NCBI GenBank assembly: GCA_965226875.1
Contig: OZ245439.1
Span: 488,570 to 552,569 of the forward strand
Direction of reading: 5' to 3'
Source of the DNA: Dehalococcoidia bacterium
Lineage (GTDB): Bacteria; Chloroflexota; Dehalococcoidia; Lucifugimonadales; UBA3495
Length of the DNA stretch: 64,000 nt
The notes beneath the pieces are model-generated. The model searched no databases. It saw only the letters and a list, made by a program, of their open reading frames with translations, and was not told the origin of the DNA. Below, in pieces: positions 3,448 through 41,012 of this stretch. The stretch's first letter is position 1; every line of letters starts with the position of its first letter. Both the position numbers and the translations under genes were made by a program.

Positions 3448-3590
3448 GAGACTATCTCAAAACGTGGCGCGGCACCCAACCCGTCATTCCCGCGGCACCC
3501 AACCCATAGATTCCCGCGAAGGCGGGAATCTATGGGCTTTGGTCGCGATGCCGGTACATCAGGAGGGACAGTTGATTTTGAGGTAGTTTC
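3448..3590. mobile_element. MITE-like element (IS5/IS1182-like ends) with internal REP palindrome
   Basis: TIR GAGACTATCTCAAAA (3448-3462) / TTTTGAGGTAGTTTC (3576-3590), 13/15 match; TAA on both flanks; internal GATTCCCGCGAAGGCGGGAATC. Confidence 0.65.
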
Positions 3591-37297: not shown

Positions 37298-38287
37298 TCA
37301 CAGCCACAGGCGGTAGACGCCGTCGGCCATCATCGCGCCGAACAGCAGGGCCAGGTAGAGCAGGGAGTAGAGGTACAGGTTGCGGGCCTTCTGCCGGCTC
37401 TGCACTCGCAGCAGCCGCCAGGCTCCCCAGATGAAGGCTGCGCCCAGACCAACCGCCGAGAACAGGTAAATGGCGCCCACCGTTCTGGTGGCGGCGAACA
37501 CCAGGGTCAGGGCCACCAGCACCAGGGAGTAGGCGAAGATGTTGCCCACCGTCTTCTCCAGCCCGGCCACCACCGGCAGCATCGGCACCCCAGCGCGCTC
37601 ATAGTCCTGCTGTATCAGCAGCGACAGCGCCCAGAAATGGGGTGGCGTCCAGAAGAAGACGATGGCGAACATATAGAGCGCGGGCAGGTCGAAGCTCCCG
37701 GTCACCGCCACCCAACCCACCACGGGCGGGATGCTGCCCGCCGCGCCGCCGATGACGATGTTCTGCGGCGTGGTGCGCTTGAGCCAGCCGGTGTATACCA
37801 GCACGTAGAACAGCGTCGCCGCCAGAGTCAGCACCGCCGCCAACAGATTCACCCCGTAGAACAGCACGGCGAAGGCGGCCACGTTCAACGCGATGCCGAA
37901 GGCCAGCGCCATCAGCGGGCGAATCCGGCGCCCCGGCACCGGACGCTGCGCCGTCCGGGACATCAGCGCGTCGATGTCCTGGTCAAGGTAGTGGTTAATG
38001 GCGTTGGCGCCCCCGGCCCCCAGGGCGCCGCCCACACAGACCAGCAGCAATGTCAGCAGATCGGGAACTCCCGATCCTCCGACGTGCCTGGAAGCCAGGA
38101 ACATCCCGCCGATGGCGGTCACCAGCAGCAGCGAGATGATGGGCGGCTTGGTCAGGGCCAGGTAGTCGGCCAGAAGCCCCGTAAGCCCGCTCCGCTCCCG
38201 TCGCCGGGTTTGGGGGTGGGAATCTGCGGCGGCATCCGTGGCGGGGTTTTCCGTTTCTATCTCTATATGTCCGGCTTGGTCAGCCAT
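37298..38287 (-). CDS. ctaB: Heme o synthase (protoheme IX farnesyltransferase)
   Basis: LTKP, NHYLDQDID.LMSRT..RP, LKR.TPQNIVIGG, WTPPHFWAL. Confidence 0.95.
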   Translation of the reverse strand: MADQAGHIEIETENPATDAAADSHPQTRRRERSGLTGLLADYLALTKPPIISLLLVTAIGGMFLASRHVGGSGVPDLLTLLLVCVGGALGAGGANAINHYLDQDIDALMSRTAQRPVPGRRIRPLMALAFGIALNVAAFAVLFYGVNLLAAVLTLAATLFYVLVYTGWLKRTTPQNIVIGGAAGSIPPVVGWVAVTGSFDLPALYMFAIVFFWTPPHFWALSLLIQQDYERAGVPMLPVVAGLEKTVGNIFAYSLVLVALTLVFAATRTVGAIYLFSAVGLGAAFIWGAWRLLRVQSRQKARNLYLYSLLYLALLFGAMMADGVYRLWL

Positions 38288-38288
38288 T

Positions 38289-39314
38289 TCATCCTGAGCC
38301 AGTGGAAGGACTCGATTCGCGGGAGTAGCTCAGCGTGGCCAGCGCGGCGGCGCAAGCCCAGACCCCGGAGGCCAGCGCCAGGTGCAGCGCCCGCAACTCC
38401 ACGTCGCGGCCGAACCCGGCCCAGATTACCCCGGCCCCGGCCAGAACCTGCGCGGCGAACAGCGCCAGCGCCGCCACAGACAGCAATCGTACCACGGGCG
38501 GCTGCCGCTGTCCTGAGCCAGTGGAAGGGCGCCGGAACCCCAGATGCAGGGCATATATCACCAGAAGCCCGGCGATCAGGGCCACGTAGCGATGCGCCAT
38601 GTGAATCATCGCCAGCTTACCGCCGGGGAACACGCCGCCCCATTCGTTGCTACAGAGCGGCCACGACGGGCAGGCCCAGGTGGCCGAGGAGGTGTTGGTC
38701 AGGTAGGAACCCGACAGCAGCAGCAGAAACAGCGCTCCCGCCGCCGCCAGAGACAGCGGCGGAAAGAGCCGAGCCTTGCCCACAGCCCACGGCGGCGATT
38801 CTGACTGCATCCCGCCACGGTAGGACATGACCAGGATCAGCACACAACAGGCCAGCGTCAATTCGCCCACGGCCAGGTGCGTTATCACGGTATGGGCCGA
38901 AAGCTCGGTCGCCACGGTCAACGCGCCCAGCAGGGCCTGCACGATGACCAGGACCAGGGCGGCAAGGGACGGCCAGAATATCCACGGCTCCCCTCGGTAG
39001 CGCACCCAAGCCCCGACAAACGTCGCGGCAACCAGCGGCCCCACCAGGAACGAGGCCGCGACTCGGTGGGCGTACTCGATGATGGACTTTGTTTCCAGTG
39101 GCGGCAGCCATTGGCCGGAACACAGCGGCCAGTCGTCGCCGCAGCCCAGGCCCGACTCGGTGACCCGCACCACGCCGCCGAGGATCAGCATGGCGAAGAC
39201 CGATGCCACCGTGGCCCAGGCCAGCCGCCGAAACCAGCCTTCCGCGCCGACGCTGCCCGCCCGGAACCGCCTGCCCACGGCTACCGCCACGAGAGTCCCC
39301 CATATATGAACCAA
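38289..39314 (-). CDS. ctaA: Heme A synthase (COX15/CtaA); start uncertain
   Basis: GGVVRVTESGLGCGDDWPLC, EYAHR, CPSWPLC, HMAHR. Confidence 0.92.
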   Translation of the reverse strand: MVHIWGTLVAVAVGRRFRAGSVGAEGWFRRLAWATVASVFAMLILGGVVRVTESGLGCGDDWPLCSGQWLPPLETKSIIEYAHRVAASFLVGPLVAATFVGAWVRYRGEPWIFWPSLAALVLVIVQALLGALTVATELSAHTVITHLAVGELTLACCVLILVMSYRGGMQSESPPWAVGKARLFPPLSLAAAGALFLLLLSGSYLTNTSSATWACPSWPLCSNEWGGVFPGGKLAMIHMAHRYVALIAGLLVIYALHLGFRRPSTGSGQRQPPVVRLLSVAALALFAAQVLAGAGVIWAGFGRDVELRALHLALASGVWACAAALATLSYSRESSPSTGSG

Positions 39315-39739
39315 ATGGAAAGCAACTTTCCCCCAGGCAACAGACTGGGGTCAGGAAGGGAAGGCGAAGGCGGAAAGATACGGAGAAGGCCCATGGACAG
39401 CCGACGGCAGACGCTCCTGACCGGGGTTGAATGGCGCTCCGCCCGGCCTGTTCATGAAGGATGCAGTGGTAATCCGGCGGCGTCTCGTTTCGCTCCTGCA
39501 AAACGCCCGCGCACCAGTCAGCCAACGAAAAACGTACCATCGCCTGAGCCGGATTGTCAATCGGAGCGCGACGCGGCGATAGCGTTCCGAATTAGGTGGT
39601 CGAGACGGGTAGCCGACATTAACACCCACTACCCTTGGATTCCCGCTTTCGCGGTAATGACGGACCGTAAGCTGCCATATGGGGTGGCGCGATGCCACAG
39701 TCGGCCGAGAGCTTTCATGCCCTGGCGGGGGCGTCCCAG

Positions 39740-40073
39740 CGAGGGTGCGCTCGGCAACGCCGGTGTCTCGGGCGGCCTGGGCTAGGGACTGGGCGAGGGC
39801 AATCCTGGGGAGGGCGGCCTGCTGGCGGAAGGTGAGTTTGGAAATTTCGATTTCCCGGCCATTTCCGGTCATTTCGGGCCGTTGAATCTGACCGTCGGAG
39901 GCGGGTGTAGTGTCGGAGTTGGGTTTGGAAATTTCGATTTCCCGGCCATTGGCGGCCATTTCGGGCCATTGTATCTGACCGTCGGAGGTGGGTGTAGTGT
40001 CGGAGTTGGGTTTGGAATCGGGGTTGCGCTTGGGGAGCCTGGCGCAGGGAGTCTTCTTTTGGTTTTCAGGCAT
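39740..40073 (-). pseudogene. Truncated ORF: two 29-aa tandem repeats plus start of an HTH
   Basis: 87-bp period (39840/39927); 'LTFRQQAALPRIALAQSLAQAARDTGVAERTL' HTH-like segment, then non-protein-like sequence. Confidence 0.55.
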
Positions 40074-40148
40074 CAAACATCGCGTGGCCTCAGTGGCTTT
40101 GTGGTTTTGGCCCTGGTGATATGGGGAGCGGGGGGCCATGTGTTTATA

Positions 40149-40177
40149 ATAGTACACCTGTTCGATTAACTTGGCAA
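40149..40177 (-). promoter_or_regulatory. Sigma70-type promoter overlapped by a LexA-type SOS box
   Basis: TTGCCA-N17-TACTAT on the minus strand containing CGAAC-AGGT-GTAC. Confidence 0.6.
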
Positions 40178-40409
40178 GTGGGAGGAGGCGATAGCCTTCC
40201 GAATTAGGTGGTCGAGACGCGTACCCGCCATTAACACCCACTATCCTTGAATTCCCGCTTTCGCGGGAATGACGGACCGTAAGCTGTCATACTACCTAAA
40301 TTAGAACGCTACCGCGACGCGGCCAAGGGCTGTCCCAAGCGCTACAAGCCCCCGGCCATTAATCCCGTGCCTGCCGGAGGACGGGTCTGCGGGAACGCCT
40401 GTTCCCCGT

Positions 40410-40841
40410 CTAGTGACCGTGCTGGGCCAGTTCTATCAGGACGCCATGGGCCGCCGACGGGTGCATGAAACCAATGTCTCCTCCCATGAGGCCGGTGCGC
40501 GGCACCTTGTCTATCAAGCGGACGCCGAGGTCGTCCAGGGTCTTCAGCTTGTCGGCGATTCCCTCCACCTCGAAGCAGACGTGGTGCAGGCCCTCGCCCC
40601 GCTGCGCGATGTGGGTGGTGATCAGGCTGTCGGGGCCGGTGCCTTCCAGCAGCTCCAGGTTGGTCTCGCCAACCGGCACGAAGCAGCCGCGTACACCGAT
40701 GTCCTCGCGGACGATTATCTGTCCGGGCTTGAAGCCGAACAGGCCCCGGTAGAACTCGATGCTCTCGTCCAGGTTGGCGACGGCGATGCCGATGTGATGC
40801 ACCAGGTCGGTGGCAACCGGCGGTGTTCCGGGCAGTGTCAT
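40410..40841 (-). CDS. mce: Methylmalonyl-CoA epimerase (VOC family)
   Basis: HHIGIAV, LELLE, RGEGLHHVCFEV, FMHP..HGVLIEL. Confidence 0.85.
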   Translation of the reverse strand: MTLPGTPPVATDLVHHIGIAVANLDESIEFYRGLFGFKPGQIIVREDIGVRGCFVPVGETNLELLEGTGPDSLITTHIAQRGEGLHHVCFEVEGIADKLKTLDDLGVRLIDKVPRTGLMGGDIGFMHPSAAHGVLIELAQHGH

Positions 40842-41012
40842 ACTCCCTCCTTGATATTTGTTTTTTACATGGATGCACTGGATGTACAGGATATTTTTAG
40901 CTGCGCCGTATTCTAACACCGAAGGTTGCCTTCACATGCCCACGCATCTGCAACGCCCACCATGGAGTATACTGGGGCGCTATCTGAACACAACGAAAAT
41001 GGGAGGGCAACG

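Follow-up and report, generated by a model that had tools for sequence, protein, structure and literature searches.

The subject of this analysis is an element in a stretch of 64,000 nucleotides (the window) from an uncultured Dehalococcoidia symbiont of a sponge, represented by a sponge-associated metagenome-assembled genome of 4.03 Mb in a single contig. The element proper occupies positions 39578-40313 (736 bp), carries no transposase and is situated upstream of ctaA-ctaB, with which it shares its orientation, a placement already made in an earlier, sequence-only reading of the window and confirmed by the neighbouring genes. We consider it likely that the unit derives from a small insertion sequence (IS) as a non-autonomous, cargo-carrying form, with a target choice that is oriented and guided by −35 hexamers. 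The bias in position and orientation behind this conclusion is strong: one end of the element, the A-end, lies 16–17 bp upstream of a −35-like hexamer. This oriented, fixed-distance association was absent from the sequence-only reading and is new here.

Insertion position relative to host promoters

The two ends of the element can be told apart: the A-end (..CCGAATT..) corresponds to the IS end downstream of the transposase gene and the B-end (..CCAATTT..) to the upstream end. Moving outward from the A-end, one finds a 9–10-bp duplication, 6–7 unconserved bases and then a TTGACA-like hexamer. In the window's own genome, 16 of 25 copies have a TTG-type hexamer at offset 16–19 from the A-end (random rate 0.032, P ~2e-18), and in 15 of 25 the hexamer is accompanied by a −10 at 16–18 nt (random rate 0.0018, P ~3e-35); column 18 of the A-end flank is a T in 23 of the 25. 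None of 22 B-end flanks has a TTG-type hexamer. Among solo MITEs (miniature inverted-repeat transposable elements) of genome G043, the A-end hexamer is present in 8 of 17, with a −10 in 5 of 17. Intact copies of the parent IS, described below, have it at the A-end in 6 of 14 (five exact TTGAC), with a −10 in 3 of 14, and at the B-end in 1 of 14.

These hexamers belong to the host, because the spacers differ between copies, co-oriented open reading frames (ORFs) follow and the promoter is present in relatives without the element. The sequences between −35 and −10 vary from copy to copy, and a co-oriented ORF of at least 90 aa starts 51–399 nt away in 22 of 25 A-end flanks; the downstream ORFs tested, ten of ten, fall into ten different Pfam families (ctaA, aminotransferase, PdxS and others). 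For copy 3535909-3537502, conservation of the host promoter extends to seven relatives without the element, and in G043 the orthologous promoter received a solo MITE of its own, inserted independently at the same distance and flanked by another duplication. The window copy faces a perfect TTGACA, which begins 17 nt from its A-end in a region conserved in the closest relative (G015, ~93% identical). As this hexamer corresponds to the sigma-70 −35 consensus, the copies that survive lie just upstream of host promoters left intact, and they point in the same direction as the host gene.

Two intact IS copies (L076 and L077) have TTGAC without a recognisable −10, and a third (L079, G012:C1:4187139-4188911) interrupts the gene of an EamA-family transporter, between the parts that encode the two EamA domains, as indicated by Pfam matches on the flanks, with TTGCCA at the usual offset. 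Copies without a −10, and one inside a gene, favour the DNA hexamer over a working promoter as the cue, and from these sequences we infer that the bias is an insertion preference read from DNA. To our knowledge, oriented insertion measured from a −35 hexamer is not known in the IS literature, and a lexical literature search, with supplements and subscription journals outside its scope, found no −35-guided insertion of an IS or MITE.

A family of copies with their own duplications

A BLAST search with the unit revealed the same architecture at 29 places in its own genome, amounting to 0.56% of the sequence, and all 82 end-like 22-mers in the genome (up to 4 mismatches) lie within these places or at most ~100 bp from them. 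The window copy is flanked by a perfect 10-mer. Duplications of 9–10 bp with at most one mismatch flank 16 of the 22 copies that have both outer ends, seven of them perfectly; two further copies have duplications matching at 8 of 10 positions, and four have none. An alignment of 16 copies showed majority identities of 0.91–0.98 inside the element and of ~0.5 right outside 39578 and 40313, and this collapse of identity exactly at both ends independently confirms the boundaries. Empty and filled sites were compared with relatives for three copies; one, at 3173884-3174852, corresponds in G015 to a clean empty site that holds GTGATAT(A/G)G once. The 31 genomes searched yielded no empty site for the window copy. 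The sequence-only reading had proposed that a transposase-less cassette moved as a unit, and had suggested a BLASTN search for more cargo-bearing copies with duplications of their own; the 29 places, the 16 duplicated copies among 22 and the empty site in a relative bear out both. The family thus has what defines MITEs and mobile insertion cassettes (MICs): terminal inverted repeats, copy-specific duplications, no internal transposase, an autonomous partner and, for one copy, an empty site.

The internal A-end is joined to the −35 of the cargo promoter by the same 11-nt junction in 28 of the 29 places. Since the copies have one identical internal junction, the composite formed once and was then amplified. 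The earlier suggestion that the unit was built from two MITE copies stands in so far as the right 124 bp is a complete MITE and the left module is the same MITE without its inner end; it does not stand as a local composite assembled ad hoc, in view of the single junction. Both MITEs are complete at 2 of the 29 places, and the window copy, with its left module lacking the inner end, does not have the two complete flanking elements of a composite transposon.

Three of the four duplication-less copies have one flank sequence in common, which suggests recombination between copies. The flank CTTCGCAGGG is found once at an A side and twice at a B side (copies at 193548, 1013812 and 2805745), and two of the loci bearing it also have ~80 bp beyond in common, ending in a solo end, a pattern that points to recombination or segmental duplication between copies. 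Copy 2024478-2026598 is interrupted by a 1.4-kb IS (L004 1110-2471, minus strand) that encodes a 453-aa DDE_5 (IS701-like) transposase (PF13546, E 7e-35); this insert was considered as the autonomous partner and rejected as an unrelated IS.

The parent insertion sequence

Of 40 genomes of the genus, 22 contain the end motif. A search for an IS with the same ends, as the sequence-only reading had advised, was successful: an IS of 1,065 bp is present in G035, G012 and G004. The G035 element (L059 340-1404) has the same 22-bp ends and the duplication CTTTACACG. It encodes a 98-aa zinc-finger frame (orfA) overlapping a 291-aa frame with helix-turn-helix (HTH) and DDE domains (orfB); the two meet at an A7 run, where a −1 frameshift joins them. 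Full-length copies, each of 1,065 bp, number 11 in G012, two in G004 and one in G035, and most of them have a 9-bp duplication.

Matches of the transposase to named families are weak: orfB to IS256 (38.3 bits in NCBIfam, cut-off 150), ISH6 (33 bits), ISLre2 and PF00872 (Transposase_mut; 16.6 bits, cut-off 21), and orfA to ISKra4 (26 bits) and ISH6. Its homologues form 180 unnamed clusters, several with precomputed PF00872. The IS256 family typically makes duplications of 8–9 bp; this length is found at most of the 14 intact copies, with a family score that stays below the curated one. Judged by its sequence, the transposase is a distant relative of IS256/ISH6 (Mutator-type DDE), not of IS4. 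The earlier assignment to IS4/IS231 is therefore not supported, as the matches, weak as they are, lie with IS256/ISH6/ISKra4 and PF00872 and not with DDE_Tnp_1/IS4.

In the window's own genome no full-length transposase match was found, the 82 end-like matches include no autonomous partner, and the 29 places contain no transposase apart from a remnant of 37–39 codons. This remnant corresponds to orfB residues 253–291 (92–97% identity) and abuts the outer A-end of copy 3589993-3590678 at 3590678. With the transposase lost from the genome apart from these last codons, the copies are probably immobile relics, and the 29 places are probably frozen. In G043, which has ~118 ends, most belong to solo MITEs of 111–180 bp with 9-bp duplications; a pair of G043 ends 1.48 kb apart (L056) was considered as an autonomous element and rejected, as it brackets a host gene, Ada-like by eye.

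Anatomy of the window copy

The features of the locus are collected in Table 1. Everything in the structure described earlier, namely two direct modules of ~100 bp with their palindromes, a single closing inverted end and a flanking 10-mer, was found in the sequence. A repeat finder, together with the sequence, gives a direct repeat pair of 115 nt with 90% identity (39565-39679 and 40177-40291) and inverted arms of 25 nt that are 80% complementary (39576-39600 and 40291-40315). The terminal inverted repeats of the window copy have arms of 22–25 nt, and the consensus ends differ at 2 of 22 positions. The closing end, ACTACCTAAATTAGAACGCTACC at 40291-40313, is confined to the right module.

Table 1. 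Coordinates of the element, its parts and the adjoining host features in the window
Feature	Position	Strand	Details
Left target-site duplication GCGACGCGGC	39568-39577		Directly outside the A-end; identical to 40314-40323
Right target-site duplication GCGACGCGGC	40314-40323		Directly outside the B-end
Outer terminal inverted repeat, A-end GATAGCGTTCCGAATTAGGTGG	39578-39599	+	Same 22-mer (0–2 mismatches) bounds all copies and the 1,065-bp IS
Left MITE module without inner (B) end	39578-39679	+	102 bp; 90–92% identity to 40190-40291
Complete MITE	40190-40313	+	124 bp; internal A-end 40190-40211, palindrome 40251-40270, closing B-end 40292-40313
87-bp tandem repeat	39830-40017		Units 39830-39916 and 39917-40003, 91% identity; third partial unit from 40004; encodes the 29-aa repeat of ORF1
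ORF1' open frame (cargo gene fragment)	39354-40073	−	ATG at 40073; two 29-aa repeats; HTH LTFRQQAALPRIALAQSLAQAARDTGVAERTL at 39741-39836
Cargo promoter TTGCCA-17 nt-TACTAT	40149-40177	−	1 site against 0.3 expected
Putative LexA-type box GAACAGGTGTAC, overlapping the −10	40152-40163	−	AGAAC-N4-GTAC
Host promoter-like site before ctaA	39531-39560	−	TTGACA (39560->39555), 18-nt spacer, TACGTT (39536->39531)
ctaA (COX15-CtaA)	38289-39314	−	
ctaB (UbiA)	37298-38287	−	
Glyoxalase/VOC-family gene	40410-40919	−	

Each module holds one palindrome, ATTCCCGCTTTCGCGG(T/G)AAT, at 39639-39658 and 40251-40270. In the form ATTCCCGC-N4-GCGGGAAT it resembles repetitive extragenic palindromic (REP) sequences; the genome has 173 copies of it, of which 122 lie beyond the elements, and the element merely holds one per module. 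As a short GC-rich palindrome dispersed in intergenic DNA it has the character of REP sequences and bacterial interspersed mosaic elements (BIMEs); no search aimed at RAYT/TnpA(REP) genes was made. Elsewhere in the window the same palindrome is seen at 3510, 29204 and 29273.

The order of parts is common to the family: an end module, an HTH remnant, one to four 87-bp units, the promoter, the second end module and the closing end. No structured RNA was detected by Rfam at E<=0.1.

A two-gene cassette as cargo

The cargo is best understood from the longer copies, which alone have a full-length ORF1 (287 aa); in most copies it is truncated. Copy 3535909-3537502 (1,594 bp) encodes an ORF1 of 287 aa made up of four 29-aa repeats, the HTH and a helical tail, and an overlapping ORF2 of 120 aa. 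In the window, ORF1 is cut after '...AERTL': past 39741 the frame runs over a deletion junction, then on across the left module and out into host DNA. The number of 87-bp units is one in 16 of the 29 places, two in nine, three in two and four in two. Among the own-genome copies, variable sites in ORF1 are distributed 15/11/17 over codon positions 1/2/3, a pattern of neutral drift that makes the earlier term 'gene fragment' apt.

ORF1 has weak matches only, to PF13022 (HTH_Tnp_1_2) and to PHROG families labelled terminase small subunit, and no PDB match by sequence; its atlas neighbours are small phage-associated HTH proteins, which we take as a lead only. ORF2 matches nothing in Pfam, NCBIfam or PHROG. 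Its predicted structure is confident and all-helical (pLDDT 82), and the model has no PDB match at E<=0.001. The ORF2 family comprises 367 representatives at E<=0.001 and includes an ORF1-ORF2 fusion, P0042 (312 aa), in which an ORF1-like HTH domain (PF13022, weak) is joined to an ORF2 domain; this arrangement supports a joint function of the two cargo proteins.

The ORF1-ORF2 cassette with the same promoter is also multicopy in species without these ends, for example G048 and G051. Examples are L025 7100-8400 (G048) and L031 and L032 3625-4965/4987 (G051), with TTGCCA-17-TAC(T/G)AT and GAAC-N4-GTAC; the two G051 cassettes share 93% identity across ~1.35 kb, and neither inverted ends nor a duplication could be seen around them. 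In G043 the cassette has been captured between ends in a different geometry. Being multicopy without the ends and captured differently in G043, the cassette may be more than a passenger. A homologue of ORF2, diverged to 38% identity, lies in G015 (G015:C2 L102 1159-1449) just upstream of the gene beyond the B-end of copy 2881831-2883085, and a cassette may have been present at that locus before the ends reached it.

The cargo promoter and its LexA-type box

The cargo promoter is kept in 28 of the 29 places and in the cassettes of other species that lack terminal inverted repeats. Of the promoters in these 28 places, 27 retain both half-sites, GAAC and GTAC, of the box overlapping the −10, and 3–4 spacer bases are variable. 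LexA of this class uses a Gram-positive-type box. Compared with GAAC-N4-GTTC, the window box GAACAGGTGTAC is off by one half-site base, and the deviation in the right half-site is perhaps due to its overlap with the −10. The cassette had earlier been credited with an SOS-type promoter and an HTH cargo; the promoter, a LexA-type box and the HTH gene fragment are indeed present, the box with this one imperfect half-site.

Outside the elements, AGAAC-N4-GT[TA][CT]T has only 12 matches in the genome. AGAAC-N4-GTTYT stands at the promoter of lexA itself, at a Y-family polymerase gene and at a paralog of ORF1, which accounts for two of the matches, being one palindrome read on both strands. It is plausible, on this distribution, that AGAAC-N4-GTAC is a putative LexA-type operator, to which LexA would bind. 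A lexical literature search found no paper on LexA boxes of Dehalococcoidia. The best LexA-type box outside lexA is that of the diverged ORF1 paralog (G000:C1:230469-231100), a 180-aa frame behind the perfect palindrome AGAACATAAGTTCT. Beside copy 3637264-3637721, the host promoter of an impB/mucB/samB-family (Y-family polymerase) gene (G000:C1:3637174-3637264) has AGAACATTTGTTTT between −35 and −10, and a probable SOS gene would here itself be a target of the element. The recA gene carries AGAACATTTGCAC.

No intrinsic terminator was found in the region scanned. Given this, and because the copies face host promoters, read-through from the cargo promoter into ctaA-ctaB is possible, and we would expect transcription to continue into host genes at other copies as well. 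The A-end junction is crossed by contigs from RNA libraries in two studies, although such contigs cannot prove transcription.

Proposed origin of the composite and choice of target

We propose the following origin. Two 124-bp MITEs would have bracketed, once and in the same orientation, a resident cassette whose two genes, ORF1 (for the phage-type HTH protein carrying 29-aa repeats) and ORF2 (for the helical protein of 120 aa), stand behind the LexA-type promoter. A transposase supplied in trans would then have used the outer A-end together with the far B-end as transposon ends, and internal deletions would have given short forms like the window copy, which kept transposing. At each event the transposition complex would pick a target so placed that 16–17 bp separate the A-end from a TTGAC(A)-like hexamer downstream of it and 7 bp lie between this hexamer and the duplication. 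We infer the two-MITE origin of the composite, and such targeting could have assembled it automatically: the cassette promoter and the next co-directional host promoter would each attract a MITE, leaving an A-end and a B-end outside.

Several observations weigh against this account. The hexamer is missing at 9 of 25 own-genome copies, 9 of 17 G043 MITEs and 8 of 14 intact IS copies; with exceptions in all three sets, the targeting rule is a strong preference and not an absolute one. In the window itself the −10 (TACGTT) is weak and failed a stricter promoter scan, and the first possible ctaA start is ~210 nt downstream. The internal A-end stands 12 nt, not 16–17, from the cargo −35, so the homing of a MITE on the cargo promoter fits imperfectly. 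No solo 124-bp MITE was found among the 82 end-like matches in the own genome, though every copy contains such a MITE with its internal A-end intact and G043 has dozens of solo ones, and simple mobilisation in trans does not predict this absence. The transposase scores below the curated cut-offs of every named family, the right half of the box is GTAC rather than GTTC, and the evidence on mobility is comparative throughout.

A broader proposal has, in our estimate, somewhat short of an even chance: that the small IS and its MITEs measure 16–17 bp, in one orientation, from −35-type TTGACA, with either the DNA or sigma-bound polymerase as the cue, and so find a general safe haven upstream of promoters; as a by-product, inward-facing LexA-type promoters would come to lie before some twenty unrelated operons, coupling for instance ctaA-ctaB to DNA damage.

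A different explanation, that the copies are kept for their cargo and serve an SOS-linked host function such as damage-inducible read-through into ~20 operons or LexA titration, seems to us possible but unlikely. The half-sites kept amid variable spacers in 27 of 28 copies are in keeping with it, as are the similar boxes at lexA, the Y-family polymerase gene and the ORF1 paralog among the 12 outside matches, the cargo that always faces a host promoter with no terminator in the region scanned, and an ORF2 family that is real and diverse (the 367 representatives and the fusion). However, ORF1 drifts neutrally (15/11/17) and is truncated in most copies, the element is evenly 91–98% conserved with no better-kept segment, and the evidence of expression consists of RNA-library contigs, which cannot show transcription.

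We regard as improbable the possibility that the element homes on promoter-bound RNA polymerase holoenzyme, through sigma region 4 or the alpha C-terminal domain, and not on hexamer DNA. The region ~7–16 bp upstream of a −35 is the zone of the UP-element and the alpha C-terminal domain, and it is here that the duplication falls; a −10 at correct spacing in 15 of 25 own-genome flanks would likewise agree with a bound enzyme. Against this stand L076 and L077, with TTGAC and no −10, and L079, which lies within the EamA coding region.

Position near promoters might also reflect selection after random insertion, with copies elsewhere lost, which we hold to be decidedly improbable. Harmlessness would fix neither the distance of 16–17 bp nor the orientation (A-end 16 of 25 versus B-end 0 of 22), exact TTGAC stands at this offset in 5 of 14 intact copies of the IS, of which two have no −10, and one IS copy sits inside the EamA gene. 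As a fixed offset and a single orientation are not expected from selection for harmless sites, target choice is better ascribed to the transposition complex. In favour of selection, the full-promoter signal is strongest in the old, diverged own-genome copies (15 of 25) and weaker in the intact IS (3 of 14), with a co-oriented gene downstream of 22 of 25 copies. An oriented, −35-guided target choice accommodates the richer signal of old copies too, because insertion spares the −35 and −10 and copies at real promoters survive.

The original proposal of a local composite of two MITE copies mobilised by an IS4-family transposase (IS231/MIC-type) is very improbable: there is indeed a 10-bp duplication, as there are two direct modules, and 2 of 29 copies have both MITEs complete, but the IS with these ends best matches IS256/ISH6/ISKra4 and PF00872, the only DDE_5/IS701-like gene near a copy belongs to the unrelated IS interrupting copy 2024478-2026598, one internal junction is common to the copies, and no IS4-family element with GATAGCGTTCC... 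ends is among the 82 end-like matches of the own genome.

To an assembly artefact or collapsed repeat at the locus, which the sequence-only reading had named as grounds for doubt, we give next to no credence: short-read contigs do end within the element, but in four public runs, which belong to three studies, contigs run across the flank-to-element junction on either side (38900-39604; 40257-40795 or beyond) with 0–1 differences, the duplication is present, and there are 28 other places with independent flanks. With both junctions crossed in this way, the locus is not an assembly artefact and the assembly is sound here. No contig of the public runs joins the flanks without the element.

Comparison with known systems

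As such, the element is ordinary, since cargo-bearing, transposase-less IS derivatives are already known. MICs are such derivatives, for instance MIC231 of IS231 in Bacillus cereus; like them, the present element has IS-type ends around passenger DNA and moves whole, with a duplication, by means of a transposase supplied in trans. Unlike MIC231, its parent is not of the IS4/IS231 type and one end is duplicated internally, so that a whole MITE lies inside; unlike MICs, its cargo is a decaying regulator fragment with a promoter, and its insertion is oriented and measured from a −35-like hexamer. It resembles the Correia (NEMIS) elements of Neisseria in being short, multicopy, transposase-less and intergenic, with terminal inverted repeats and a capacity to feed transcription into neighbours, and the palindrome ATTCCC-N8-GGGAAT resembles the core of neisserial dRS3. 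For Correia elements the duplication is TA and no fixed distance to promoters is reported, whereas the duplication here is 9–10 bp and the offset from the −35 is fixed.

The weak but consistent transposase matches and the 9-bp duplication liken the parent to the IS256/ISH6/ISKra4/ISLre2 group, from which it differs in being only 1,065 bp long with a transposase split in two frames at the A7 run; a lexical literature search found no description of such a target preference in these families. What stands out is the targeting rule, in which distance and orientation are both set with respect to the commonest promoter element. Tn7 TnsD at attTn7 and Ty3 at Pol III promoters likewise insert at a set distance and orientation and spare the adjacent gene, but they rely on dedicated selector proteins and one site or gene class, whereas the small IS apparently uses a generic hexamer at many promoters. 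If the rule is intrinsic to the ~325-aa transposase, it would explain how dozens of IS copies are carried without gene breakage, and would amount both to a naturally occurring means of rewiring, at many promoters simultaneously, the DNA immediately upstream and to a compact enzyme for placing DNA beside promoters.

The ctaA locus in relatives

The window stretch is contained in public runs that include sponge metagenomes. The synteny of ctaA and the VOC-family gene is kept by G015 only, and G015 carries a different insertion, of 2.38 kb, at exactly that point (G015:C2:2008700-2012900, orthologous to window 39577/40312). This insertion encodes a 334-aa frame that by eye is an IS1595-type transposase, and it is bracketed by diverged copies of the window 10-mer. 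Possibly the point upstream of ctaA is an insertion hot spot; alternatively, one insertion could have taken the place of an older one there.

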